Assembly (NCBI GenBank): GCA_963831745.1
Contig: CAWHRD010000008.1
Location: 73,816 to 137,815, forward strand
From: an uncultured Chloroflexia bacterium
GTDB lineage: Bacteria > Chloroflexota > Limnocylindria > Limnocylindrales > CSP1-4
Reading direction: 5' to 3'
Length of the DNA: 64,000 nucleotides
Shown one piece after another: positions 15,427 through 30,742 of the stretch (its first letter is position 1; every line of letters starts with the position of its first letter). A model generated the notes under the pieces. That model had not been told where the DNA came from and searched no databases. It was given only the letters and a program-made list of their open reading frames with translations. The position numbers and the translations under genes were made by a program.

Positions 15427-15826
15427 GCCAGGCCGCCCGGTCGGTGGAACCGTCGGGCTCGTCGCGGAGCACGCCCCCGGTCACGGTCACCCGGAACAGG
15501 AGCGCGATCGCGTGCATCTCGCGGGGCCGGCCGTCGGGAAGCCGCCCGGGGTAGACGTGCGAGCGGTGGCCGATGATCCCTTCCACCCGCCCGACGAGCC
15601 CCGTCTCCTCCTCCAGCTCGCGCAGCACGGCGGCCGCGGGATCCTCGCCGAAGTCGATCCCGCCGCCGGGGAGCGTCCACGATCCGGGTGACGGCTCGCC
15701 CGGCGCCAGCCGGCAGCAGAGCAGCCGGTCGCCGTCGCCGCAGACGGCATAGGCGGCGACCCGCACGAGGCGGACGACGCCGTCCTCGCCGGCCGCGGCA
15801 CGGGTGCGCTCGGACCAGGGGGTCAT
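15347..15826 (-). CDS. NUDIX hydrolase
   Basis: Nudix box GGGIDFGEDPAAAVLRELEEETGL. Confidence 0.85.
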   Translation of the reverse strand: MTPWSERTRAAAGEDGVVRLVRVAAYAVCGDGDRLLCCRLAPGEPSPGSWTLPGGGIDFGEDPAAAVLRELEEETGLVGRVEGIIGHRSHVYPGRLPDGRPREMHAIALLFRVTVTGGVLRDEPDGSTDRAAWLTPDELSRERVVKMLRSALDVAFGGE

Positions 15827-15902
15827 GACGGCGAAGTATCGCCATCCGCGGCGGACTGCGCGAGCCCCAGCTCGCGGCGTCGCCTGGTGCCACGCGGTTG
15901 GA

Positions 15903-16695
15903 TCATGCCGCCGGGTGTTGCGCGTCGATCGCGAGCACGGCCTCGGCCGCGAGGTGGAGGAGAAGAGCGCGTCCCTCGGCGTGATGGGGCCATCCGCGTG
16001 GATCCCAGGCCGCGCCTGAGAGGTCGTCCCCCGCGTAGAGCATCTGGCCGAAGGAGACGCCCCGGAACCGCGCGACGGCGAAGAACGCGGCCGCCTCCAT
16101 CTCGACGGTTAGGCAGCCCTCCGCCACCCTGCGGCTCGATCTTCGCCCGCGTCTCACGGTAGAACCCGTCGGTCGTCCAGGTCTTGCCCGTCACGTGAGG
16201 GATGGCATGCCGCTCGAGGGTGGCCAGGATGGCGGCGACGGCGTCGTCCGTCGGTGCCACCTCCCGCGACGGCGGCGCGTAGTGGTAGCTCGTCCCCTCG
16301 TCGCGAACGGCCGCCGTCGGCACGACGATGTGACCGAGAGCGAGCTCCGGAACGAGCACGCCGGCGCCGCCGACCGCCACGAATGCTCGGCAGCCGAGGG
16401 CGATCAGCTCGTCCAGCCACCCGGCCGCCAGCGGCGCGCCGACGCCGGCCTGGGCGATCGCCAGGCGTCGCCCGCCGTAGTCGACCTCGTAGATCGGATG
16501 CGGGCCCATCTCGGACGCGAGCGCCCCGATCTCGCGACCGCCGAGCTCGGCGACGGCAGACGCGATCACGTCCCGAAAGAAGCAGAGAACGGCGTGCCGC
16601 GGCATGTCGAACGGCGCGTGGGCGAGCGCCGGCTCGATCACGGCCAATGGCGTCGGATCGAACTCGAGGATCGGAGCGTCGGGGAGGTCGGACAA
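15903..16695 (-). pseudogene. nucleoside phosphorylase (PNP_UDP_1 family) with a +1 frame break near 16129-16135
   Basis: The N-terminal two-thirds are in the frame of track ORF 15823..16965 (..GVGAPLAAGWLDELIALGCRAF..TWTTDGFYRETRAKIE). The C-terminus is in the frame of ORF 15903..16157 (RRVAEGCLTVEMEAAAFFAVA..). Start is TTG 16695 after AGGAAG, or GTG 16713. Confidence 0.7.
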
Positions 16696-16954
16696 TGGAC
16701 TTCCTGGTCGCACGCGGCAGGTGGGGGATCGACGCCGCGATCGTCGTCGCCCGACGTCGCGAGCGCAAGGCCCGGCGCGTTTCGACGGCCCCGGCAGGAC
16801 CACGGACGAGGCGATCGAGCTGCTCGTGCGACGGCCAGACCCGACGCCCGCCCAGGCTCCGGCCGCGCAAGGCTCACGGTCACGTCCCGGCGTAAGCGCA
16901 ACAGCGCGCTCGTCGCCGCGCCGCGTCCCGCGATCCGCGCAACTGATGGCGTCC

Positions 16955-17162
16955 GATCCTGTCAAATGCTGGCGGAGCGATCCTTACGGCATGTGGCCGG
17001 AGCCCGCGCGTCGCCGGAGCCCCTCCAGGAGGCGCGCGATCCTGTCACCGGTGCCGCGGGGCAGGCACCTGATCAACCTCCGCCCCGTCGCGGGACGGCT
17101 CGTCCTTGAGCGGGCAGGGGCCTTCGCACATACGGCTCGCGTGACGCGCATTTGACAGGATC
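16955..17162. mobile_element. MITE-like 208-bp interspersed element, copy 1
   Basis: 15-bp terminal inverted repeats GATCCTGTCAAATGC (16955-16969) and GCATTTGACAGGATC (17148-17162). An internal third copy of GATCCTGTCA sits near 17037. It is clearly homologous, in reverse orientation, to 63140-63347. Confidence 0.5.
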
Positions 17163-17197
17163 GCCGGGCGGCCCATGGCGAGAGCCGCGTGGCCGCG

Positions 17198-17302
17198 GCG
17201 CGATGCCGCCACGCTGCGGCGCGATGCCGCCACGCTGGGGCGCGATGCCGCCACGGCGCGGCGCGATGCCGCCACGGCGCGGCGCGATGCCGCCACGCTG
17301 CG
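17198..17302. repeat. 21-bp tandem repeat x5
   Basis: GCGCGATGCCGCCACGCTGCG units at 17198, 17219, 17240, 17261 and 17282, with 2-3 variable bases at the unit end. Confidence 0.9.
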
Positions 17303-17334
17303 GCACCACATCCTGGGACTTGACCACCCCAACC

Positions 17335-17350
17335 TTCACGCGAACGTGAA
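17335..17350 (+). promoter_or_regulatory. perfect dyad TTCACG-CGAA-CGTGAA at the 5' end of the MerR gene
   Basis: Inverted repeat read directly from the sequence. TTGACC lies at 17320-17325 just upstream. Function is not established. Confidence 0.3.
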
Positions 17351-18063
17351 TGTTGTGGGATCATCCGCACATGTCGTCCCCAGCTTCCCCGCGCGTCGCG
17401 CCCGCGGTCCGCCCCGCTTCGGCGGATCCGGCGGCGGCCGATCGCGCGGCGGTAGATCCGGCGGCGGCCGATCCGGCGGCGGCCGATCGCGCGGCGGTAG
17501 ATCCGGCGGCGGCCGATCCGGCTGCCGATCCGGCGGCGGCCGGTCGCGCGTCGCCGACCAGGTCCGAGCCCGCCCCGGCTCCCGTTCCGCCACGGCTGCT
17601 TCGCATCCAGGAGGTCGCGTCGGAGACCGGCCTGACGCCCCGCTCGATCCGCTACTACGAGGAGATCGGGCTCCTCCGCCCGGCCGCCCGCTCGCAGGGG
17701 TCCTATCGCCTGTACGACGCGTCGGACCTGGAGCGGCTGCGGTTCATCCGCGAGCTGCGCGACAACGCCGGCTTCAGCCTCGGCGAGATCTCGCGCCTGC
17801 TCGAGGACGAGGAGGCGCGCATCCGCGACCGCGAGCGCTTCCGGGCTGCCGGCGACGAGGCCGAGAAGCGCGCGATCCTGCGCGACCTCATCTCCCGGAT
17901 GGACCGCCAGGTCGCGACGCTCACCGAGAAGGCCGATCGCCTGCGCGAGATGATCGAGGCGGCCGAGTCGCGCCGCGAGCACCTGCGGGCCCACCTCGCC
18001 GAGCTCGAGGGCGGGTCGCCCGCCCACGCGGCCGGCGCGCCGCACGCGGAGACCGGGCCGTGA
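17350..18063 (+). CDS. MerR family transcriptional regulator with repetitive Ala/Asp/Pro N-terminus
   Basis: HTH region LLRIQEVASETGLTPRSIRYYEEIGLLRP..YRLYDASDLERLRFIRELR, then a C-terminal coiled-coil region. Start could be ATG 17350 or ATG 17371. Confidence 0.8.
   Translation: MLWDHPHMSSPASPRVAPAVRPASADPAAADRAAVDPAAADPAAADRAAVDPAAADPAADPAAAGRASPTRSEPAPAPVPPRLLRIQEVASETGLTPRSIRYYEEIGLLRPAARSQGSYRLYDASDLERLRFIRELRDNAGFSLGEISRLLEDEEARIRDRERFRAAGDEAEKRAILRDLISRMDRQVATLTEKADRLREMIEAAESRREHLRAHLAELEGGSPAHAAGAPHAETGP
17425..17541. repeat. 15-bp GATC-phased tandem repeat (~8 units) inside the MerR 5' coding region
   Basis: Alternating GATCCGGCGGCGGCC and GATCGCGCGGCGGTA units, encoding ADPAAADRAAVDPAA... 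Confidence 0.85.
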
Positions 18064-19349
18064 CGATCCGTCCGCTCGGCAGCGCCGGCGCCCTCCGCTC
18101 GATGCGCCATCGCAACTTCCGCCTCTTCTTCGGCGGACAGGCGATCTCGCTCGTCGGCTCCTGGATGCAGGCGGTGGCGCAGTCGTGGCTGATCCTCACG
18201 CTCACGAACGACCCGCTGATGCTGGGCGTGGTCGCGGCGGCCCAGTGGACTCCCGTCCTGCTGCTGGGGCTCTTCGGCGGCCTCATCGCCGACGCCCTCC
18301 CCAAGCGCCCGACCCTCGTGATCCTCGAGGGCGTGATGGCGACGCTGGCGATCGTGCTGGGCCTCCTGACCCTGGCCGGCGTCGTCCAGGTCTGGATGAT
18401 CCTCGTCCTCGCCGTCCTGCTCGGCTGCGTGAACGCCATCGAGATGCCGGTCCGCCAGTCGTTCGCCGTCGAGATGGTGGGCCGCGAGGACGTGGTTAAC
18501 GCGGTGGCCCTCAACTCGGCGACGTTCAACGCCGCCCGGGTGGTCGGCCCGGCCGTCGCCGGGATCACGATCGCGGTCTTCGACATCTCGATCGCCTTCT
18601 TCATCAACGGCCTCAGCTTCCTTGCCGTCATCGCCGCCCTGCTCGCGATGCGCGCCGAGGAGCTCCGCACGCCCCCGCCGATCCCGCGTCCGCGCACCGT
18701 GCGTGCCGTCGTCGCGTCGGTCGGGGAGGGGCTCGGCTACACGCGACGGACGCCGTCCGTCCTGCTGCCCGTCGTGGTCGTCGGCCTCGCGGCGACGATC
18801 GGCATGAACTTCCAGGTGACGATCCCGCCGTTCGCGCGCGACGTTCTGGGGGGCGACTCGACGACCTTCGGGTTCCTCATGACGGCCAGCGGCCTCGGGT
18901 CCGTGGCCGCCGCGCTCCTGCTTGCGACGCGGCGGCACCCGAGCCCGTGGGCGATTGCGGGAGGCGCGACGATGCTGGGCGCCGGCCTGCTCGCCATGGC
19001 GGCGTTCCCGGTGTTCGCGGTCGCCCTCGCGGCGCTCGCGTTCGCCGGGTTCGGCGCGATCTGGATGGCCGCGAACGGCAACACGCTCATCCAGGCGACG
19101 GTCCCGGATGAGCTGCGCGGCCGTGTGCTCAGCGTCTACACCACGGTCTTCGCCGGATCGACGCCGATCGGGGCGCTCTTTGCGGGGGTGATCGCCTCGC
19201 GCTGGGGCGCCGTCGCCGCGCTCGCGGTGGGTGGCGTCCTCACCGTGGCGATCGGTGGCGCGGCCATTGCCTGGCTGCGACGACACCGCGACGTGGGCCT
19301 GCCGGCGCCGGCTCGCGCGGCGCTCGGCGGCCGCCGGACGGCGCCGTAG
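18060..19349 (+). CDS. MFS transporter (EntS / MFS_3-like)
   Basis: GTG 18060 forms a GTGA overlap with the MerR stop. FRLFFGGQAISLVGSWMQAVAQSWL is typical of this MFS subfamily. About 12 helices. Confidence 0.8.
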   Translation: MTIRPLGSAGALRSMRHRNFRLFFGGQAISLVGSWMQAVAQSWLILTLTNDPLMLGVVAAAQWTPVLLLGLFGGLIADALPKRPTLVILEGVMATLAIVLGLLTLAGVVQVWMILVLAVLLGCVNAIEMPVRQSFAVEMVGREDVVNAVALNSATFNAARVVGPAVAGITIAVFDISIAFFINGLSFLAVIAALLAMRAEELRTPPPIPRPRTVRAVVASVGEGLGYTRRTPSVLLPVVVVGLAATIGMNFQVTIPPFARDVLGGDSTTFGFLMTASGLGSVAAALLLATRRHPSPWAIAGGATMLGAGLLAMAAFPVFAVALAALAFAGFGAIWMAANGNTLIQATVPDELRGRVLSVYTTVFAGSTPIGALFAGVIASRWGAVAALAVGGVLTVAIGGAAIAWLRRHRDVGLPAPARAALGGRRTAP

Positions 19350-19470: not shown

Positions 19471-19499
19471 TTGACATGGTGCGCCCACGCGCGTAGGCT
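19471..19499 (+). promoter_or_regulatory. candidate housekeeping-sigma promoter of the BMC operon
   Basis: TTGACA (19471-19476), a 17-nt spacer, then TAGGCT (19494-19499). This lies ~30 nt upstream of the regulator start. Confidence 0.45.
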
Positions 19500-19526
19500 G
19501 GCACAAATGAGCAGCTGGCTGCGCAG

Positions 19527-20526
19527 TTGAGCATGTCGACGAGTCCCGCGACCCTCCGCCGCGACGAGGCAGGGTCCGGCGAGACCCGCCTGATGCTCCG
19601 CGCCGCCCAGCTCTACTACCGCCTGAACCTGACCCAGGACGAGGTCGGCAAGCGGCTCGGGGTGAGCCGCTTCAAGGTCGGCCGGCTCCTGGACCGGGCG
19701 CTGCGCGAGGATGCCGTCCGGATCGAGATCGTCCACCCGGCCGCCCGGCTGGTGGCCCTCGAGGACGCCCTCGTCGAGCGCTTCGGGCTCGCCGGCGCGG
19801 TCGTGGTCGACGTGCCGGCCACGGGCTCGCCGGCCGACGACGAGCTCCTCGCGCGCGAGCGGGTCGCCGCCGCGGCCGCCCTCCACCTGGCCACGATCCG
19901 GCCGCAGGGCGCGATCGGCGTCTCCTGGGGGCGCACGATGCTGCAGCTCGCGGCCCACCTGCAGCCCGGCTGGACGTCCGCGACGGAGATCGTGCAGCTC
20001 AACGGGGCGATCTCGCGGTCGGCGCTCCCGACGCGGGCCCAGGAGGTCGTCGAGCGGTTCGGGACCACGACCGGGGCCGCCATCCGGCTGATGGCGGCGC
20101 CCGCGATCGTCGGCTCGCCCGACCTGCGCCGGGCCCTGGAGGACGACGCGGCGGTCGGGGAGACGCTCGCCGCGGCGCGCACCGCACGGACGGCCATCTT
20201 CGGGATGGGCGTCCATGGGCCGGACAGCGTCCACGTCGCGTCGGGCTACCTCGACGAGGCCGAGCTCGGCGGCGCTGTCCGAGGCCGGCGCCGTCGGCGA
20301 CGTCCTGGGTCGGTTCCTGGCCCAGGACGGCCGCATCGCGCTTCCCTCGCTCGACGCCCGGACCGTGGGGCTGCCGCTGGATGACCTGCGGGCGAAGCCG
20401 CTGACCGTCGGGCTCGCCGCGGGCGCGGGACGCGGCCCGATCGCGCTGGCGGCCCTGCGCGCCGGCATCGTCACCGTCCTCGTCGCCGACGAGGCGACCG
20501 CCGCGTGGGTGCTGGCCCATGGCTGA
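19527..20526 (+). pseudogene. SorC/DeoR-type sugar-phosphate-binding transcriptional regulator, +1 frame break near 20268
   Basis: N-terminal HTH RLMLRAAQLYYRLNLTQDEVGKRLGVSRFKVGRLL plus sugar-binding domain in frame 0. The C-terminus ALSEAGAVGDVLGRFLAQDGRI..VLVADEATAAWVL continues in frame +1 (track ORF 20215..20526). Start is TTG 19527 or ATG 19533. Confidence 0.75.
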
Positions 20527-21161
20527 CCCGCGCACGCCATCGGCCGACGAGGTCCGGGCGCTGGTCCGGAGGATCGTCGACGCCACGCTCGACGGCGGCA
20601 CTCCGGGACCGTCCGCACCCCCGACGCCGGCCGCGCCCGCCCCTGCGCCCGCGCCCGCCCCTGCTCCCGCACGTGCCGCGGGATCCATCGCCATCGCGAT
20701 CGGCGCCGACCACGGCGGCTGGCAGCTCAAGGACGTCATCGGCCGGGTCCTGGCCGAGGCCGGCTACGCGGTCACCGACTGCGGCACCAACGGGCCCGAC
20801 GCGGTGGACTACCCCGACATCGCGCACGCGGTGGCGCGCCTGGTCGCCGACGGGAGCCTGCCGCTACGGCATCGTCCTCGACGGCGCCGGGATCGGCTCG
20901 TGCATGGTCGCCAACAAGGTGCCGGGCATCCGCGCTGCCAACTGCCATGATCTCTCGTCGGCCCGCAACAGCCGCGAGCACAACCACGCCAACGTCCTGG
21001 CGCTCGGCGCCCGCTTCCTCGGCGAGGGGCTGGCGATCGAGATCGTGCGGGCCTGGCTCGGGACCGACTGGGCGCCCGGCCGCCACGCCGCCCGCGTGGC
21101 CAAGATCACGGACGTCGAACGCCGCTACACGAACCCAACCGGTGAGGGTCGACCACGATGA
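20519..21161 (+). pseudogene. rpiB: ribose-5-phosphate isomerase B with ~57-aa N-terminal targeting-peptide-like extension; +1 frame break near 20857
   Basis: [35 protein letters not shown] is in one frame. [42 protein letters not shown] continues in the +1 frame (track ORF 20505..21161). The N-terminus is [17 protein letters not shown] followed by a Pro/Ala linker. Confidence 0.75.
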
Positions 21162-21307
21162 GCGAAGCGATCAACCAGCGGAACGACCTCGTCGAGGCGA
21201 TCACCCACGAGGTCCTCGCCGCGCTGGGCCACGGCGGCCAGGCCGGCGGCGCGCCCCGGATCCCTGCGCCGCCTGCGTCCGCGGCTGCGCCGCCCAGTGC
21301 GCGGTGA
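21158..21307 (+). CDS. 49-aa ORF: amphipathic helix plus Pro/Ala linker (targeting-peptide-like, no enzyme domain)
   Basis: ATG 21158 forms an ATGA overlap with the RpiB stop. TGA 21305-21307 forms a GTGA overlap with GTG 21304 of DeoC. Sequence: [49 protein letters not shown]. Too short to appear in the ORF track. Confidence 0.45.
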
Positions 21308-22047
21308 AGGTCCGCGACATCGTGGCCGGCGGCGCCTCGCGCGTGGAGTACCACGGCCCGGGCGCGGAGGTGCCGCGCGACCTCGCCCGCTACATCGACC
21401 ACACGCTGCTGCGGCCCGACGCCGCGGCCGCCGACATCGACCGCCTGTGCGACGAGGCCGCCGAGCACGGCTTCGCCGCCGTCTGCGTGAACCCCGCCTG
21501 GGTCCGCCGCGCCGCCGATCGACTCCGCGGGACCGGTGTCGCCGTCGCCTCGGTCGTCGGGTTCCCGTTCGGCGCCACCCCGCCCGACGTCAAGGCCTTC
21601 GAGGCCCGCCGGGTCATCCGCGACGGGGCCCGCGAGGTCGACATGGTGATCAACATCGGGGCCCTCAAGAGCGGGATGCACGACCTCGTCCGCGAGGACA
21701 TCGCCCGCGTCTCGGACGCCTGCCACGAGGGCGGCGCGGCGAACAAGGTGATCATCGAGGCCGCCCTCCTGACCGACGCGGAGAAGGTCGTCGTCTGTCG
21801 TCTTGCCCAGCAGGCCAAGGCCGACATGGTCAAGACCTCGACCGGCTACGCGAAGGGCGGCGCGACGGTCTTCGACGTGGCGCTGATGCGGGAGACGGTC
21901 GGACCGAAGATGGGCGTCAAGGCGGCCGGCGGGATCCGGACGGCGGACGACGTGCAGGACATGATCGCGGCCGGCGCGACCCGCATCGGGGCCTCGGCCG
22001 GGGTCAGCATCGTCAGCGGGGAGAAGGGTGCGCATGGGCAGTACTGA
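21304..22047 (+). CDS. deoC: deoxyribose-phosphate aldolase, paralog 1
   Basis: [80 protein letters not shown] 21304 is taken as the start. It could instead be fused to the upstream 49-aa ORF if an indel is present. Confidence 0.85.
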
Positions 22048-22738
22048 GCACATCGCCGAAGTCCCCGCCGACCTCGCCCCCTACATCGACCACACGCTCC
22101 TCGACCCGGCCGCGACCCGGGCCGACATCGACGCCCTGTGCGCCGAGGCGAAGCGCTACGGCTTCGCGGCCGTCTGCGTGAACCCCGCCTGGGTGCGCCG
22201 CGCCTACGAGAACCTCGCCGGGACCAGGGTCGCGGTCGCCTCGGTCATCGGCTTCCCGCTCGGGGCCGCCACGACCGAGGTGAAGGTCCTCGAGACGCGC
22301 CGGGCTCTCCGCGACGGAGCCCGCGAGATCGACATGGTCATCAACGTCGGGCGGCTCAAGAGCGGGATGAACGAGTGGGTCGGCGACGAGATCCGCAAGA
22401 TCGCCGAGGTCTGCCACGAGGCCGGAGCGATCACGAAGGTCATCATCGAGACGTCGCTCCTGACCGACGCCGAGAAGGTGACCGCCTGTCGCCTCGCGAA
22501 GGAGGCCAGGGCCGACATGGTCAAGACGTCGACCGGCTGGGGGACCGGCGGCGCCACCGTCGCCGACGTGGCGCTGATGCGCGCGACGGTCGGCCCGGAG
22601 ATGGGCGTCAAGGCGTCCGGCGGCATCCGCACCGCCCAGGACGTGCAGGACATGATCGCCGCCGGCGCGACCCGCATCGGGGCCTCGGCCGGCGTCAAGA
22701 TCGTCACGGGAGAGAAGGGCGCAGATGGGCAATATTGA
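22034..22738 (+). CDS. deoC: deoxyribose-phosphate aldolase, paralog 2
   Basis: Same motifs as paralog 1 ([38 protein letters not shown]). ATG 22034 lies 5 nt after GAAGGG (the track starts it at GTG 22028). Overlaps paralog 1 by 14 nt. Confidence 0.85.
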
Positions 22739-23354
22739 CCTCCGGGCATACGTCTTCCTGGACAGCCTCCAGGCCCAGTACGCGGCGTTCCTCGGCACGG
22801 TTGCCCAGGGCTTCCTGCCCCTCGCCGGCGACGCCTCGCTGTCGATCGAGATCTCGCCCGGCATCGAGATCAACCGCCTCACCGACATCGCCCTCAAGTC
22901 CACGGCGGTCAAGCCCGGGATGCAGATCATCGAGCGCTACTACGGCATGCTCGAGATCCACTCGCCGTCGCAGGCCGAGGTGCGCGCCGCCGGCGCTGCG
23001 ATCCTCGGCGAGATCGGCCTGGCGGAGACCGACCGGATCAAGCCGCGGGTCCTGTCCTCCCAGATCATCCGCCGCATCGACGACCACCAGGCGCAGCTCA
23101 TCAACCGCACGCGCCACGGCCAGATGCTGATCCCGGGTCAGACGCTCTACGTCCTGGAGCTGGAGCCGGCGGCCTACGCTGCCCTGGCCGCCAACGAGGC
23201 GGAGAAGGCGGCCCACATCAACATCCTCGAGGTCCGGTCCTTCGGATCGATGGGCCGCATCTACCTGGGCGGCGAGGAGCGCGACATCGACGTCGGCTGG
23301 CGCGCGGCGCTCGCGGCGATCGAGGGCCTCGAGGGACGGGACGCCAAGGCGTAG
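22725..23354 (+). CDS. BMC shell protein, tandem-domain (BMC-T)
   Basis: [25 protein letters not shown] start, then two BMC-like halves (..[23 protein letters not shown] and ..[34 protein letters not shown]). It resembles the double-domain shell proteins of actinobacterial/myxobacterial BMC loci as I remember them. Confidence 0.8.
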
Positions 23355-23478
23355 GGCCCACGGGGCCGCCGACGCGCCGGCCGGGGGCCGGAACGCACGG
23401 ACCGCCGCCGGTTCGTCAGTACGCACGAACGGATACACAGGCGAACAGAAGAGCAAGGTCGAGAAGGAGAACGGATCG

Positions 23479-23787
23479 ATGGCAGAAGCGCTCGGGATGA
23501 TCGAGGCCCGCGGGTTCGCGGCGGTGGTCGAGGCCGCCGACGCGATGGTGAAGGCGGCGAAGGTCGAGCTCGTGAGCTACGAGAAGACCGGCGGCGGGTA
23601 CGTGACCGCGGTGGTCCGCGGCGACGTCGCCGCGGTCAAGGCCGCGGTCGAGGCCGGCGTGCGCAACGCCGGCAAGGTCGGCGAGGTCGTCGCCAGCCAC
23701 GTCATCGCCCGGCCGCACGTCAACGTCGACCTCGTGCTGCCGCTCGGCCGCCTCGACGAGGCGAAGGCCGAGTCCGGCCAGGGCTAG
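23479..23787 (+). CDS. BMC shell protein, hexamer type (BMC-H, PduA/EutM-like)
   Basis: Canonical [57 protein letters not shown]. Strong RBS GAGAAGGAGA. Confidence 0.95.
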
Positions 23788-23798
23788 GACGCGGGATC

Positions 23799-23827
23799 GG
23801 GCGCGCCGGCCGCCGGCCGGCGCGCCC
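23799..23827 (+). terminator. very strong intra-operon stem-loop directly after the BMC-H gene
   Basis: GGGCGCGCCGGCC-GCC-GGCCGGCGCGCCC, a perfect 13-bp GC stem with a 3-nt loop. It starts 12 nt after the BMC-H stop. No U-tract follows. Confidence 0.5.
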
Positions 23828-23851
23828 TCCCTGCCAGCAGGCGGTGATCAG

Positions 23852-24139
23852 ATGCTGCTTGGACGAGTGACCGGGACCGTGGTCGCGAGCCGCAAAGAGC
23901 CGCTCATGGAGGGCTGGAAGCTCCTCGTGGTGCGCCAGCTCGACGCGGAGAACCACGTGGCCGGCGGATACGTCGTGGCCGCGGACGCGGTCGGCGCGGG
24001 CGTCGGGGAGGTCGTGCTGTACGCGACCGGCAGCTCGGCGCGGAACACCGAGGCGACGAAGGACCGTCCCTGCGACGCGGTGATCGTGGCGATCGTCGAC
24101 ACGTGGGAGATCGGCGGGACGGAGGTCTACCGCAAGTAG
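23852..24139 (+). CDS. BMC vertex protein (BMC-P, EutN/CcmL family), paralog 1
   Basis: [56 protein letters not shown]. Confidence 0.9.
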
Positions 24140-24174
24140 CCGGCCGCTCGTCGACGGCGGGCAGGCGGAGGACG

Positions 24175-25629
24175 ATGGACGAGCGCGAGATCCAGGAGAT
24201 CATCGAGCGGGTGCGGCGCCGCGTGTCGGCAGCGGGCGACCCCCGCCCGGGCGCCACGCTGCGCGCCGAGGCGGAGCTGTCGGCGGCCGCCGCGAGCGAG
24301 CTGGGCGACGGCATCCACGCCACGATCGACGAGGCGGTGGCCGCGGCGACGCGCGCCTTCGTCGCGTTCCAGGCGCAGGGCCTGGCCGGCCGGAAGGTCA
24401 TCATCGACGCGGTGCGCCGCTCGATGCTCGACCACGCCGAGCAGCTGGCCCGGATGGCCCACCAGGAGACCCATCTCGGGCGCGTCGATGACAAGGTCGT
24501 CAAGAACCGCCTCGTCGCCTCCCGGGCGCCGGGGCCGGAGGACCTCGAGGTCCAGGCGGTCACCGGCGACGCCGGGATGATGGTCACCGAGTTCGCCCCG
24601 TTCGGCATCGTCGCGGCGATCACCCCGGTGACGAACCCGACGTCGACGATCATCAACAACACGATCAGCATCGTGTCGGCGGGGAACGCGGTCGTCTTCA
24701 ACGCCCACCCCAGCGCGCGGCGCTGCTCGGCCGAGACGGTCCGCCTCATCAACCGGGCGATCGTCGGGGCCGGTGGGCCGCCCGACCTCGTGACGGCCGT
24801 CGCGACGCCGACGATCGACACCGCGCGGGCCCTCATGGGCCATCCCGGCGTCCGGGTGCTGCTCGTGACCGGCGGGCCGGCCGTCGTGCGCGAGGCGCTC
24901 AAGTCGGACAAGCGGGCGATCACCGCCGGCCCCGGCAACCCGCCGGCGGTCGTCGACCAGACCGCCGACGTGGAACGCGCCGCCCGCGACATCGTGCGCG
25001 GAGCGTCCTTCGACAACAACATCGTGTGCATCGACGAGAAGGTCGTCCTGGTCGTCGACTCGGTCGCCGACCGCCTGGTCCGGGCGATGACCCAGAACGG
25101 CGCCTACCTGCTCAAGGAGCACGAGCTGCGCCGCCTCGAGCGCGTCATCTTCAAGGAGCTGGGTCAGCCGGGCAAGCCGGGCGTCATGAACCCGGCCTGG
25201 ATCGGCAAGGACGCCGTGAAGATCCTGGCCGAGATCGGCGTGCAGGCGGAGCCGGCTCCGCGCCTGCTGATCGCCGACGTCCCGCGCGACCACAGCTTGG
25301 CCTGGACCGAGCAGATGATGCCGGTCCTCCCGGTCGTGCGCGTCGGCACGGTGGACCAGGCGATCGACCTCGCGGTGCGCATGGAGCACGGCTTCCGCCA
25401 CACCGCCTCGATCCACTCCACGAACGTCGAGACGATCACGAAGATGGCCCGGGCGATGAACTGCAGCATCTTCGTCACGAACGGCCCCAACGTTGCGGGC
25501 CTGGGCGAGGGCGGCGAGGGCTTCACCTCGTTCTCCATCGCCAGCCCGTCCGGGGACGGCCTCACGCGGCCGCGGACGTTCTCGCGCGAGCGGCGCATCA
25601 CCGTCGTCGGCGCGCTGCGGATCGTCTGA
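24175..25629 (+). CDS. CoA-acylating aldehyde dehydrogenase (PduP/EutE-like) with N-terminal targeting helix
   Basis: ATG 24175 after GGCGGAGGA. N-terminus MDEREIQEIIERVRRRV then a linker. Aldehyde dehydrogenase core with FDNNIVCIDEKVVLV (catalytic Cys context typical of PduP/EutE). Confidence 0.9.
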   Translation: MDEREIQEIIERVRRRVSAAGDPRPGATLRAEAELSAAAASELGDGIHATIDEAVAAATRAFVAFQAQGLAGRKVIIDAVRRSMLDHAEQLARMAHQETHLGRVDDKVVKNRLVASRAPGPEDLEVQAVTGDAGMMVTEFAPFGIVAAITPVTNPTSTIINNTISIVSAGNAVVFNAHPSARRCSAETVRLINRAIVGAGGPPDLVTAVATPTIDTARALMGHPGVRVLLVTGGPAVVREALKSDKRAITAGPGNPPAVVDQTADVERAARDIVRGASFDNNIVCIDEKVVLVVDSVADRLVRAMTQNGAYLLKEHELRRLERVIFKELGQPGKPGVMNPAWIGKDAVKILAEIGVQAEPAPRLLIADVPRDHSLAWTEQMMPVLPVVRVGTVDQAIDLAVRMEHGFRHTASIHSTNVETITKMARAMNCSIFVTNGPNVAGLGEGGEGFTSFSIASPSGDGLTRPRTFSRERRITVVGALRIV

Positions 25630-25631
25630 CG

Positions 25632-26300
25632 ATGACCCCTCGGCCGGTGTCGGACGCTCGCCCGCCGATCGAGCCGGCCCTCGCGCTCCTCGAGCTCGAC
25701 TCGATCGCGGCCGGCATCGAGGCGGGCGACGCGATGGCGAAGCGCGCCCCGATCGACGTCCTCCGGGCCGGCACGGTCCACCCCGGCAAGTACCTGGTCC
25801 TCGTCGGCGGTGCCGTGGCGGACGTGGAGGAGGCCCTGGAGGCGGGCCGCGACGTGGCGGCGTCCTCGGTCCTCGACGTCGTCTTCCTGCCCAACGTCCA
25901 CCCGGCCGTCGTGGCGGCCATGCGCGGCATCCGCCGCGAGGCCGCCGGCGAGGCCCTCGGCATCATCGAGACCGCCACCGTCGCCGCGATCATCGAGGCG
26001 GCCGACGCAGGGCTCAAGGGTGCCCGGGTGGTCCTTCTGGAGCTGCGTCTCGCCGACGACCTCGGCGGCAAGGGCTACCTGCTCTTCGACGGGCCGGTCG
26101 CCGAGGTGGAGGCCGCGGTCGAGCTCGGGAGCGCGCGGATCGCCGGGTCGCCCGGTCTGGTCCGGCGGGTCATCCCGCAGCTCCACGCGGAGATGGCGGA
26201 GAACCTGGCCGCCGACGCGCGGTTCGCGGCGCGCATGCGCGAAGCCAGCGGGCCGGCGGGGTCGATCCCGCGGCCGCACCCCGCGAAGCCGGCGAGGTAG
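25632..26300 (+). CDS. BMC shell protein, tandem-domain (BMC-T), second type
   Basis: Two BMC domains: ALALLELDSIAAGIEAGDAMAKRAPIDVL..GKYLVLVGG and ALGIIETATVAAIIEAADAGLKGARVVLLELRL..GKGYLLFDG. Confidence 0.85.
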   Translation: MTPRPVSDARPPIEPALALLELDSIAAGIEAGDAMAKRAPIDVLRAGTVHPGKYLVLVGGAVADVEEALEAGRDVAASSVLDVVFLPNVHPAVVAAMRGIRREAAGEALGIIETATVAAIIEAADAGLKGARVVLLELRLADDLGGKGYLLFDGPVAEVEAAVELGSARIAGSPGLVRRVIPQLHAEMAENLAADARFAARMREASGPAGSIPRPHPAKPAR

Positions 26301-26303
26301 GCG

Positions 26304-26693
26304 ATGCAGCTCGCACGTGTCACCGGCACCGTCGTCGCCACGGTCAAGGTCCCGGGCCTGACCGGGATCAAGCTCCTCCTGGTCCAGCCGCTGGACCGCC
26401 AGCTGCTCCCCGTTGGCGGTCAGGTCGTCGCGGCCGATGCCGTCCACATGGCCGGACCGGGCGAGCTGGTGTACATCGTCGCCGCGCGCGAGGCGGCCCA
26501 GGCGATGCCCGATCCGTTCGTCCCGATTGACCATGCGATCGTCGGGATCGTGGACGCGGTTCGGTCACTGGCGGGTGACGATCCCGCTGCGTCCACCCCG
26601 GCCGAGCCGGTCGCCCCGGCCGTGCCTGACGCCCCCGGCGCCCCCGCCGCGCCTCCCGCCTCGAGGAGCCGCTCCCGGAAGGCGACGCCGTGA
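26304..26693 (+). CDS. BMC vertex protein (BMC-P), paralog 2, with Pro/Ala-rich basic C-terminal tail
   Basis: [55 protein letters not shown], then a ~40-aa tail ..PAEPVAPAVPDAPGAPAAPPASRSRSRKATP. Confidence 0.85.
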   Translation: MQLARVTGTVVATVKVPGLTGIKLLLVQPLDRQLLPVGGQVVAADAVHMAGPGELVYIVAAREAAQAMPDPFVPIDHAIVGIVDAVRSLAGDDPAASTPAEPVAPAVPDAPGAPAAPPASRSRSRKATP

Positions 26694-26971
26694 AGCTCGC
26701 CCGGGTCGTCGGGACCGTCGTCTCGACGATCGACCACCCCGCCTTCGACGGCCGGACCCTGCTGCTCTGCGACCTCCTCGACGCGGCCGGGCGCCCGGCC
26801 GGCGGCTACATGATCGCCGTCGATTCCGTCGGCGCGGGCGCCGGCGAGACAGTCCTCCTCCTCGACGAAGGCAACTCCGCGCGCCAGGTCCTCGCGGCGC
26901 CGGGCGCGCCGATCCGGACCGTCGTCGTCGGCATCGTCGACGAGGTGACCGCGGATGCCGATCACGCCTGA
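26690..26971 (+). CDS. BMC vertex protein (BMC-P), paralog 3
   Basis: GTG 26690 forms a GTGA overlap with the previous gene's stop. MKLARVVGTVVSTID..LLLCDLLD..MIAVDSVGAGAGETVLLLDEGNSAR..VVVGIVD. Confidence 0.9.
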   Translation: MKLARVVGTVVSTIDHPAFDGRTLLLCDLLDAAGRPAGGYMIAVDSVGAGAGETVLLLDEGNSARQVLAAPGAPIRTVVVGIVDEVTADADHA

Positions 26972-27416
26972 CGACGCCCGGGCCGTCCTCGCCCGCTGGC
27001 AGCCGGTGCTCCGGCTCGCCGACTGGGACATCGATCTCCGGCTCGTCACCACGGCGTGGCGCAAGCGCGGGGACGTCAAGGTGGACCTCGACGACCGCAA
27101 GGCCGTCCTGCTGCTGTGGGCCGGACAGCCCACGGAACACCTCGAGGAGGTGGTCGTCCACGAGCTGGTCCACCTGCGCCTCTACGCCATGGACCAGATG
27201 CTCGTCGAGCTGCTGGACGCGGTCTTCGGCACCGACGCCGCGGAGCCGCGGCGGGCCTTCGCCGAGACGCAGTTCATGACCCTGCTGGAATCGACCACCG
27301 AGGATCTGGCGAAGGCGCTGCTCGCGGCGAGTGGCAGCACCGCGCCCCTCACGTTCGAGCGCCTCCGCGACGAGGTCGAGCGCGAGATCGCGCCCGGGCC
27401 GACGACGGGCGAGTAG
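26955..27416 (+). CDS. hypothetical protein with HExxH motif, last gene of the BMC operon
   Basis: ATG 26955 overlaps the third BMC-P gene by 17 nt. VVVHELVHLRLY contains HELVH. 153 aa. No family recognised. Confidence 0.6.
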   Translation: MPITPDDARAVLARWQPVLRLADWDIDLRLVTTAWRKRGDVKVDLDDRKAVLLLWAGQPTEHLEEVVVHELVHLRLYAMDQMLVELLDAVFGTDAAEPRRAFAETQFMTLLESTTEDLAKALLAASGSTAPLTFERLRDEVEREIAPGPTTGE

Positions 27417-27417
27417 C

Positions 27418-27468
27418 GCCGGCCCGCGCCACGCGGGCGAGTCACAGCCGGCCCGCGCCACGCGGGCG
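27418..27468 (+). terminator. duplicated hairpin pair after the BMC operon
   Basis: GCCGGCCCGCGCCACGCGGGCG occurs twice at a 29-nt period. Each copy holds GCCCGCG-CCA-CGCGGGC (7-bp stem) at 27422-27438 and 27451-27467. The first copy starts 2 nt after the stop. No U-tract. Confidence 0.45.
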
Positions 27469-27494: not shown

Positions 27495-28205
27495 ATGCTG
27501 CCGACACCCGCCCTCGACCCGGCGCCGCGCGGCGCCGGGTTCTTCGCCACCGCCGTCGCCGTGATCGCCTACGGCGTCGCGATGGCGTTCCTCGAGTCGG
27601 CCGTCGTCGTCTACCTCCAGCGGGCCCTCGAGATCCAGGTCGGTGTCCTCTTCCCCCTCCAGGATCCGGCCGGGGTGAGGGACCTGGCGGCCATCGAGGT
27701 CGGGCGTGAGGCGGCAACGCTCGTCATGCTGGCCGCCGTGGGCTGGCTGGCCGGGCGGAGCGCCCTCGAGCGGCTGGCCTGGACCGCCGTCGCGTTCGGC
27801 ACCTGGGACATCCTGTACTACGCCTGGCTGTGGGTCTTCCTCGGCTGGCCGCCGTCGCCGTCGACGTGGGACCTGCTCTTCCTCATCCCGGTGCCGTGGG
27901 CGGGGCCGGTCTGGTCGCCCGTCGCGGTGAGCCTGGCGCTCGTCGGCTTCGGGCTGGCCGCCGCGGCTCGCCTGCGGGCCGGCCGTGCCGTGCGGGTCGG
28001 ACGCCCCCAGCTCGCGGCGGGCCTGCTCGGCGGCCTGGTCGTGATCGTGGCATTCTGCTGGAACGCGCCGCTCCTGGTGGACGGCGGCGTCCCGACCGAC
28101 TTCCCGTGGCCGGTCTTCGCGGCGGGCATGGCCCTGGCGGCCTGGGGCGCGGCCACGGCGCTGCGCGGTGCGGCAGAGCCTACGCTCTCGCCAGGACGAC
28201 CCTGA
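27495..28205 (+). CDS. integral membrane protein, unknown function
   Basis: Six to seven hydrophobic helices (FFATAVAVIAYGVAMAFLESAVVVYL, WDILYYAWLWVFLGW...). Confidence 0.6.
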   Translation: MLPTPALDPAPRGAGFFATAVAVIAYGVAMAFLESAVVVYLQRALEIQVGVLFPLQDPAGVRDLAAIEVGREAATLVMLAAVGWLAGRSALERLAWTAVAFGTWDILYYAWLWVFLGWPPSPSTWDLLFLIPVPWAGPVWSPVAVSLALVGFGLAAAARLRAGRAVRVGRPQLAAGLLGGLVVIVAFCWNAPLLVDGGVPTDFPWPVFAAGMALAAWGAATALRGAAEPTLSPGRP

Positions 28206-29410: not shown

Positions 29411-30742
29411 CTACCCGGCGAGACGCTCCAGGACCACCGGCGCGGGCGCCGGCGGGGCGTCGGCGATCGTGACCGCGGCCCGGACCTCGGCGGCAGCCGT
29501 CTCGGCCTGGGCGACCGACCGGGCATGGACCATGCAGATCGGTCGGGCCGGCCCGACCTCCGCCCCGATCGGCGCGAACCGCGTGAAGCCGACGGCGTGG
29601 TCGATCGTCTGGTCCGCACGGACGCGTCCGCCGCCCATCCCGACGATCGCCAGGCCGATCGCCCGAGCGTCCTCGGCGGCGATGAAACCGGCGCGTGCCG
29701 GAGGCACGGCGAGCGTCACCCCGGGAAGTGGCAGGTAGGTGTCGGGGCGCTCGAGCAGGTCCGCCGGCCCGCCGAGCGCGGCGACCATGCGCGCGAACCG
29801 CTCTGCGGCTTCGCCCGACGCGAGCGCGCGCTCGCAGGCGGCCCGGGCATCGGCGACGGTCCCGAAGATCCCGCCGATGACGAGCAGCTCGGCCGAGAGA
29901 GCCATCGTCACCTCGTGCTGGCGCGGCTCGCGGCCGCCGTGCCCGCCCTCGCCGACCAGGTAGGCGATCGCCTCGCGGACCTCGACGGCGTTCCCGGCCG
30001 TGGTGCCCAGCACCTCGTTCATGTCGGTCAGGATCGCCGTCGTGCGGCAGCCGGCCCCGTTCGCGACCGCCACGATGCTCTCGGCCAACTCCCGGGCGCC
30101 GTCCACGGTCGTCATGAAGGCGCCGGTGCCGAACGTCACGTCCTGCACGAGGCCAGCCAGGCCGGCGGCGAGCTTCTTCGACAGGATCGATGACGTGATC
30201 AGGGGGATGCTCTCGACCGTCGAGGTCACGTCACGGATGGCGTAGAGCCGCCGGTCCGCAGGGGCGAGCTCGCCTGTCTGGCCGATGATCGCGCAGCCGA
30301 CCTCCCGCACGACCCGACGGAAGTGGGCGTTGTTGGGCGCCGTCGTGTAGCCGTCGATCGCGTCCATCTTGTCCAGCGTGCCGCCGGAGTGGCCCAGGCC
30401 TCGCCCGGAGATCATCGGGATGGTGGCTCCGCAGGCCGCCACGATGGGGGCCAGCATGAGCGAGACCTTGTCCCCGACGCCGCCGGTGGAGTGCTTGTCG
30501 AGCGGCGGACCCGGGAGGTCCGCGTCGGACCAGTCGAGGACCGTGCCGGAATCGCGCATTGCGCGGGTGAAGGCAACGAGCTCGGCGCGGGTCATCCCCC
30601 GGAAGAAGACCGCCATCGCGAATGCGGCGGCCTGGCCCTCGGTGATCGTCCCGTCGGTCAGCCCGCCGACGAAGAAGGCGACCTCCTCGTCCGTTAGCGA
30701 GCGACCGTCGCGCTTGTGGCGGATGACCTCCTGCGGCAGCAC
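29411..30742 (-). CDS. deoA: thymidine / pyrimidine-nucleoside phosphorylase
   Basis: GTG start. [59 protein letters not shown]. Confidence 0.9.

Follow-up and report, generated by a model that had tools for sequence, protein, structure and literature searches.

Bacterial microcompartment (BMC) loci of the SPU (sugar-phosphate) class were named in 2014 (PMC4207490), and by 2021 more than 280 of them had been catalogued in 26 phyla and divided into seven subtypes (Sutter et al. 2021, Nat Commun 12:3809, PMC8217296). SPU enzymes were studied biochemically in 2024 (Dwyer, Sutter and Kerfeld 2024, Commun Biol 7:1562, PMC11585597). The locus described here lies on a 64-kb stretch of DNA from an uncultured Chloroflexota bacterium (contig CAWHRD010000008.1; ~74% G+C), referred to below as the window, and is very likely an SPU3-type BMC operon of a high-GC member of Ca. 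Limnocylindria. It is a further example of an already catalogued type and no new kind of system. Its minor novelties are (i) a promoter-operator block, (ii) adjoining nucleoside phosphorylase and cytidine deaminase genes, (iii) an extension-less tandem DeoC, (iv) a four-cysteine motif, and (v) an appended HExxH gene. An initial annotation, made from the letters of the sequence, had placed the locus in the SPU class; this assignment holds and, with the help of Supplementary Data 2 of Sutter et al. 2021, narrows to subtype SPU3.

The only SPU enzymes studied in vitro are those of the SPU6 locus of Chloroflexi bacterium GWB2_54_36, and no shell or in vivo function has been demonstrated (PMC11585597). 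Both the aldolase (DERA, of the DeoC family) and the RpiB-family protein (RPI) of this locus have been purified; DERA is active on deoxyribose-5-phosphate (deoxyribose-5-P), and the two proteins form a 1:1 complex (PMC11585597). The earlier remark that the class has no experimentally characterized member is therefore outdated. SPU6 is described as exclusive to Chloroflexi, and SPU3 comprises 31 loci (Sutter et al. 2021, Supplementary Data 2). The SPU3 enzymes are an aldehyde dehydrogenase, a PF01791 protein, and a PF02502 protein only, the dehydrogenase and DERA bearing encapsulation peptides at their N-termini; the shell genes include a single BMC-H and a BMC-P triplet, and the hosts are Acidobacteria, Actinobacteria, Chloroflexi, Verrucomicrobia, and other phyla (PMC8217296).

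The window locus shares with SPU3 (i) the same three enzyme families, with PF02502 first in order and N-terminal peptides on the dehydrogenase and DERA, (ii) a shell made of one BMC-H, a triplet of BMC-P, a BMC-T(dp) of the CcmP clade, and a BMC-T(s) that lacks a pore cysteine, with no PduS, and (iii) the host phyla (Chloroflexi, Actinobacteria, Acidobacteria, and Verrucomicrobia). Its cargo enzymes belong to three families only, namely DERA, a protein resembling RpiB, and an acylating aldehyde dehydrogenase, and the RpiB-like protein, the first DeoC, and the dehydrogenase each have an N-terminal helix with a low-complexity linker behind it. Points of difference from SPU3 are an extension-less second DERA (shared only with the related loci L004 and L015), a SorC regulator with a conserved candidate operator, the HExxH gene appended to the operon, and four cysteines that form a motif in the extension of DERA; RPI and DERA are unfused. 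The placement in SPU3 was made against the published subtype descriptions, while formal subtyping by Sutter et al. uses the "colour" clades of shell-protein hidden Markov models.

With the SPU6 locus of GWB2_54_36, the window locus has in common the phylum, a DERA paired with an RPI in which Cys66 is replaced by Asp, the lack of a phosphotransacylase (PTAC) and of PduS, the N-terminal extension of DERA, and the N-terminal encapsulation peptide of RPI. However, the SPU6 dehydrogenase falls in another branch of the dehydrogenase phylogeny and has its encapsulation peptide at the C-terminus, not at the N-terminus as in the window. SPU6 also has a "blue" clade BMC-T(dp) and a GntR-type regulator where the window has a CcmP-like BMC-T(dp) and a SorC-type regulator; its EutQ-like protein (130 aa) has no counterpart here, and no BMC-T(s) figures in the SPU6 description. 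SPU6, which would be expected from the phylum, and SPU2 were both rejected in view of where the dehydrogenase peptide sits, which residue occupies the BMC-T(s) pore, the lack of PduS, and the host range.

Twelve genes lie on the + strand between 19527 and 27416. The initial annotation had counted thirteen open reading frames (ORFs) within this range, where there are twelve; the thirteenth co-directional gene (27495-28205) falls outside it, after a 78-nt gap. The proposed identities hold for the enzymes and the regulator, with RpiB, two DeoC aldolases, an acylating aldehyde dehydrogenase, and a SorC/DeoR-type regulator all confirmed by profiles (Pfam, NCBIfam, TIGR00126), as they do for six shell ORFs, confirmed by profile and solved-structure searches. 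The implied continuity of all ORFs does not: in a six-frame reading, three genes (those for the regulator, RpiB, and the first DeoC) switch frame once apiece through a single-base frameshift. Alignment with five related loci traces these to an additional G at ~20268, another at 20856, and one base missing within or beside a C-run at 21254-21259. The extra base in the regulator is absent in all five relatives, and the frame-corrected proteins are collinear, end to end, with profiles and structures.

When species-representative genomes were scanned with the dehydrogenase, 80 loci were retrieved. The order RpiB-DeoC-Tdp-H-P-AldDH-Ts-P-P is identical in every one of the ~80 that spans the region. 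The hosts are Chloroflexota, Acidimicrobiia, Acidobacteriota, and Verrucomicrobiota, the dehydrogenase identity being 68-75% for metagenome-assembled genomes (MAGs) of the last three groups, and the SorC regulator is limited to the Chloroflexota-like set. Exact and near matches come from uncultured Chloroflexota of Ca. Limnocylindria/Limnocylindrales. Many of these relatives are MAGs with "MFD" names, which we take to be long-read soil MAGs.

The operon encodes a complete shell set consisting of one BMC-H, three BMC-P proteins, a gated CcmP-like BMC-T(dp), and a BMC-T(s) that resembles PduT, and no further shell genes were found in the window. The BMC-H (23479-23787, + strand; PF00936, 1e-29), for which several related metagenome contigs have a protein of 100% identity, resembles CcmO and EutM. 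The first BMC-T (22725-23354, + strand) is a tandem BMC-T, as had been proposed, by comparison with CcmP structures, but it fails the Pfam BMC cut-off (19.3 versus 24.5 bits). Its matches in the PDB to CcmP (2.7e-86) and CsoS1D (1.9e-50) identify it as the double-stacking, permuted BMC-T(dp) type. The second, BMC-T(s) (25632-26300, + strand; two BMC domains, 1.5e-33), is of the PduT type (PDB PduT, 9.6e-37), and a TVHPGKY segment at PduT C38 puts a histidine in place of the pore cysteine. A CcmP-like BMC-T(dp), a His at C38, and no PduS or PduL among the genes seen agree with the SPU3 description. The three BMC-P proteins, all on the + strand (23852-24139, PF03319 1.8e-29; 26304-26693, PF03319 1.1e-24 over residues 1-84; and 26690-26971, PF03319 4.5e-25), are 44-49% identical to one another, with the second and third adjacent and overlapping by 4 nt, and make up the BMC-P set of an SPU locus. 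Pro/Ala/Arg-rich tails, which are probably disordered, form the C-termini of two of the shell proteins: ~45 residues in the second BMC-P (26556-26693), where the length of the tail differs between relatives (products of 119-137 aa), and ~30 residues in BMC-T(s) (26190-26300).

BMC-T(dp) passes the NCBIfam "beta-carboxysome protein CcmP" equivalog cut-off (342.5 versus 340 bits), and automated annotation may misname it as a carboxysome protein; no carboxysome genes lie nearby. This score and the likeness of BMC-H to CcmO and EutM are the points in favor of a misread carboxysome-related, Eut, Pdu, or glycyl-radical metabolosome, an explanation that is extremely improbable because no RuBisCO, carbonic anhydrase, EutBC, PduCDE, or glycyl-radical enzyme occurs in the ORFs read (most of them scanned with Pfam, and the rest, mainly in 42-64 kb, read by eye), and enzyme content and gene order fit SPU3. 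The carboxysome, Eut, Pdu, and glycyl-radical readings were rejected on gene content, in line with the earlier statement that the enzymes are not those of such loci.

The RpiB-like protein (20519-21161, + strand; +1 frameshift at ~20856) matches LacAB_rpiB (PF02502) with 4e-51 over positions 1-138 of 138 once the frame is corrected. Its N-terminus has an amphipathic helix (hydrophobic moment 0.67) followed by a Pro/Ala linker and resembles an encapsulation peptide. The name RpiB is correct for the family. However, the protein has LDGAG where RpiB structures have ICGTG, and the catalytic residues Cys66 and Thr68 of Escherichia coli RpiB are replaced by Asp and Ala, respectively, with His99 kept. 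A Cys-to-Asp change occurs in all SPU RPIs, the RPI tested had little or no isomerase activity, and no obvious catalytic role was found for it (PMC11585597). A PF02502 protein with this substitution beside a DERA is a defining pair of SPU loci.

The first aldolase, DeoC1 (21158-22047, + strand; PF01791, 4e-19; -1 frameshift at ~21254-21259), has an N-terminal extension of ~75 residues ahead of its YIDHTLL motif that comprises a helix, a linker, and a Cx2Cx3Cx3C motif. Homologues of 295-300 aa have the same extension, and the conserved helix LVEAITREVLAAL is common to relatives. DeoC1 therefore has the extension of ~70 residues, absent from free DERAs, that marks SPU DERAs; the call in the source assembly is a truncated 247-aa product. 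An AlphaFold2 model of a DeoC1 homologue has a confident barrel and a low-confidence extension with two helices, compared with the published "helix plus two strands". The cysteine motif (21262-21300) is invariant in all 39 Limnocylindria homologues but degenerate or absent where other phyla carry this type of locus (Acidimicrobiia and Acidobacteriota versions). The model puts it on a helix, with modest confidence, and the four cysteines line one face of the predicted helix. The motif, which is unmentioned in the main text of PMC11585597, may be a metal site. It is conceivable, albeit quite doubtful, that Cx2Cx3Cx3C binds a metal or iron-sulfur center serving core assembly or NAD+ recycling and that the second DeoC is co-packaged by pairing with DeoC1.

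DeoC2 (22034-22738, + strand) is intact and lacks the N-terminal extension. It scores 281 bits against TIGR00126 (the deoC equivalog; cut-off 117), ~1e-19 against Pfam, and 1.5e-75 against the PDB DERA 8qps. In alignments to solved DERA structures, the catalytic motifs DMVIN, KVIIE, and VKTSTG are intact in both copies. A DERA with catalytic Asp/Lys/Lys, encoded among shell genes, is the signature enzyme of SPU loci, and the window has two. DeoC2 is 75% identical to DeoC1 in nucleotides and 72% in amino acids, and a unit of ~690 bp (roughly 21356-22047) is repeated at 22047-22738; this repeat indicates that DeoC2 is the product of a tandem duplication of ~690 bp. The BMC-T start (ATGGGCA), duplicated along with the unit, supplies its ATG, and DeoC2 therefore begins just before the barrel, without the whole extension. 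Tandem DeoC genes occur only in the window, L004, and L015, the last of which has all genes intact. DeoC2 forms a long branch, and a close DeoC1 relative, L087, is single-copy.

The acylating aldehyde dehydrogenase of the EutE/PduP type (24175-25629, + strand; PF00171, 3e-37) matches NCBIfam PRK15398 (EutE-like) over its full length with 625 bits. Since the products called in relatives are 484 aa long, the ATG at 24175 is taken as the start in preference to the GTG at 24103. An N-terminal helix resembling an encapsulation peptide (MDEREIQEIIERVRRRV / REIQEIIERVRRRV; hydrophobic moment 0.86) precedes a linker, and the protein ends in VVGALRIV with no C-terminal extension. An acylating dehydrogenase with such a predicted peptide is a further hallmark of SPU loci. 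No PduL, alcohol dehydrogenase, or PduS was seen among the window ORFs, as judged by Pfam for most of them and by eye for the rest, mainly in 42-64 kb. The initial annotation had seen neither PduL nor alcohol dehydrogenase, which stands, and had called the recycling of CoA and NAD+ unexplained, which needs updating, as their lack is a catalogued trait of SPU2, SPU3, and SPU6. According to a published hypothesis, acetyl-CoA exits via the BMC-T(dp) pore, and loci without a PTAC characteristically encode a BMC-T(dp).

The promoter proposed for the operon (19471-19499, + strand) is read from the sequence as TTGACA (19471-19476), a 17-nt spacer, and TAGGCT (19494-19499). Its hexamers are present as claimed and conserved in relatives, but a consensus scan does not call it because the -10 hexamer fits TATAAT at only 3 of 6 positions. 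CTTGACA is invariant in all 19 aligned upstream regions, with TAnnnT 17-18 nt further downstream, in flanks that are otherwise unalignable. Immediately after the TAnnnT hexamer follows a conserved block (19507-19535, + strand), ATGAGCA-N7-CTGCRCA-N2-TGAGCATG, which contains direct TGAGCA repeats 20 bp apart and extends into the start codon of the regulator. As a regular expression, the repeat block has a single match in the window and one in each of 33 loci out of the 52 that bear SorC, always at the SorC start and on the coding strand, and the full promoter pattern precedes 32 of these 33 matches. It has no match elsewhere in 1.48 Mb and none in loci without SorC. The bipartite operators to which tetramers of the SorC family bind are 39-45 bp long and composed of repeats, and that of CggR is located downstream of the transcription start; on these grounds, the block is a candidate operator of an autoregulated SorC repressor. 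It can also be read as an upstream ORF of 7 codons whose TGA overlaps the regulator start codon. Because the conserved codons show no synonymous variation, a DNA-level constraint appears preferable, which favors an operator over a translated upstream ORF.

The SorC/DeoR-type regulator itself (19527-20526, + strand; +1 frameshift at ~20268) consists of a helix-turn-helix and a sugar-binding domain and, frame-corrected, matches PF04198 with 1.5e-50 over positions 3-256 of 257. Its best PDB match is Bacillus subtilis DeoR (8r7y, 2.2e-41, full length), ahead of LsrR, SorC, and CggR. As in the B. subtilis DeoR/dra-nupC-pdp system, a DERA gene is linked with a pyrimidine nucleoside phosphorylase, and the repressor gene lies upstream of the operon. 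In contrast, there is no shell in B. subtilis, and its DeoR operator is a TTGAA palindrome at -60 to -21, unlike the block described here in both sequence and position. A further difference concerns the lysine of "QLKGG" in B. subtilis DeoR, reportedly the covalent deoxyribose-5-P site (Skerlova et al. 2014). The paper on deoxyribose-5-P binding by DeoR confirms only that it is covalent. The residue aligned with this lysine is Asn in the window regulator ("EIVQLNGAIS", 19947-19970) and in L015. A consensus terminator scan found no terminator at the operon end.

The proposed chemistry, in which DeoC yields acetaldehyde that is converted to acetyl-CoA, is exactly that of the published SPU model. 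Deoxyribose-5-P would enter the shell, probably after being derived from deoxynucleosides via the neighboring phosphorylases and cytidine deaminase. DERA would cleave it to glyceraldehyde-3-phosphate, which leaves, and acetaldehyde, which the encapsulated dehydrogenase would trap as acetyl-CoA. Since PduL, alcohol dehydrogenase, and PduS are lacking, acetyl-CoA, CoA, and NAD(H) presumably exchange via the large BMC-T(dp) pore. The RpiB-like protein would act mainly as a DERA-binding partner or scaffold. SorC would repress the operon from the block just 3′ of the -10 hexamer until a sugar phosphate releases it. Taken together, an SPU3-type locus with deoxyribose-5-P as its physiological substrate is a distinctly probable reading of the data; considered separately, deoxyribose-5-P as the physiological substrate is moderately favored. 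The link to deoxynucleosides is strengthened by the regulator, whose closest solved relative is DeoR, and by the conserved adjoining phosphorylases and cytidine deaminase.

Several points weigh against this reading. The literature holds no experiment on any SPU3 locus, no SPU shell has been purified, and the route of cofactor recycling is a hypothesis only. No phosphopentomutase gene (deoB) was seen in the window, which leaves the step from deoxyribose-1-P to deoxyribose-5-P locally unaccounted for, and the Asn aligned with the reported DeoR lysine makes the effector uncertain, such that the effector or its binding mode may differ from that of DeoR; both weaken the deoxynucleoside link. The frameshifts count on the same side. 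In addition to the three in the operon, a codon-position Viterbi scan of the whole window detects a fourth at ~16135, in a PNP_UDP_1-like gene on the - strand (15823-16965), so that four fall in 16.1-21.3 kb and none is detected in the other 59 kb (rough p ~0.003). No intact RpiB of the same strain turned up in a search with the corrected protein, which gave no match above 84% identity.

The missing deoB and the absence of the lysine reported to bind the DeoR effector also bear on a different account of the substrate, in which the compartment handles some other sugar phosphate. The RpiB-like protein would then act on a rare pentose phosphate or supply the missing deoxyribose-1-P mutase, and DERA would be secondary or synthetic. 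The RpiB-like protein is always present in these loci, has a helix resembling an encapsulation peptide, and carries Asp for Cys in a changed active site, all of which would suit such a role, as would the failure of published work to find an obvious catalytic function for the SPU RPI (PMC11585597). This account is nonetheless improbable because both DeoC proteins are high-scoring DERA equivalogs with intact catalytic residues, the SPU6 DERA is active on deoxyribose-5-P (PMC11585597), the nearest structural relative of the regulator is a deoxyribonucleoside regulator, and nucleoside-catabolic genes are linked to the locus. Deoxyribose-5-P remains the favored substrate.

The three frameshifts in the operon, which truncate three gene calls in the source assembly, are likely long-read assembly errors. 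Four indels within 5 kb with none elsewhere in the window are unlike uniformly spread errors, and they are the main argument for an alternative, namely that the locus was recently inactivated and is decaying in this strain, with real frameshifts and only the shell genes, the dehydrogenase, and DeoC2 intact. The affected genes all belong to sugar or nucleoside catabolism, the truncated DeoC1 call is present in the source assembly itself, and the search for an intact RpiB of the same strain came back empty, each of which would fit decay. Against it, there are no in-frame stops, deletions, or other signs of decay, the corrected proteins fit their profiles end to end, nine downstream genes are intact, and in L015, a close relative, none of these genes is disrupted. 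Fragmentation is also similar or worse in related assemblies: the operon is heavily fragmented in sister contigs of the same metagenome-contig and MAG sets (L003, L004, and L018). Recent inactivation is on balance unlikely, and assembly error is preferred as the origin of the three frameshifts. Look-ups for an independent copy of the strain were empty for exact matches of the dehydrogenase and BMC-T(dp) and, for the 153-aa protein encoded at the operon end, returned only a 1-kb Logan contig. The split PNP_UDP_1-family gene at ~16135, the site of the sole frameshift detected outside the operon, is absent at the equivalent position in most relatives.

The 153-aa protein (26955-27416, + strand) has an HExxH motif with conserved H69, E70, and H73 and no Pfam match. 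Its gene overlaps the stop of the third BMC-P by 17 nt and is translationally coupled to it. An AlphaFold2 model (predicted local distance difference test score, 92) has a zincin-like fold with weak resemblance to PprI/IrrE, SPRTN, and selecase. The gene is found in the ten closest loci only; a role as a BMC-specific component was rejected, as the protein belongs to a small family (143 clusters) that occurs in unrelated contexts and in fusions. The next gene (27495-28205, + strand) is kept at the same position in ~20 close relatives and encodes a 236-aa predicted multi-pass membrane protein that matches neither Pfam nor NCBIfam. The operon may end with this gene, whose product could be a transporter associated with the compartment.

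Convergent to the locus and 2-5 kb downstream of it, the - strand carries genes identified by Pfam as a pyrimidine-nucleoside phosphorylase (29411-30742), a member of the purine/uridine phosphorylase family (PNP/UDP; 30746 to ~31621), and a cytidine deaminase (31618 to ~32041). The phosphorylase genes adjoin the locus in ~26 of the closest loci, with the cytidine deaminase present in about half of those. On the upstream side, an ORF at 17175-19349 begins with five copies of a tandem peptide repeat, RRDAATL/RRDAATA (17175-17600), upstream of MerR/MFS_3 genes. A frame scan scores 17175-17600 as non-coding, and the real MFS_3 start is apparently near 18056.

SPU compartments are among the most widespread BMCs, and none has been isolated or linked to a growth phenotype. 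SPU3 is common in aerobic soil Limnocylindria. If the cysteine motif of DeoC1 does bind a metal or iron-sulfur center, it would offer a concrete handle on cofactor recycling in "incomplete-core" metabolosomes. A model of deoxynucleoside or DNA scavenging is supported by the DeoR-like regulator with its conserved block and by the linkage to nucleoside genes, and the compact 9-gene core is a possible template for expression studies.

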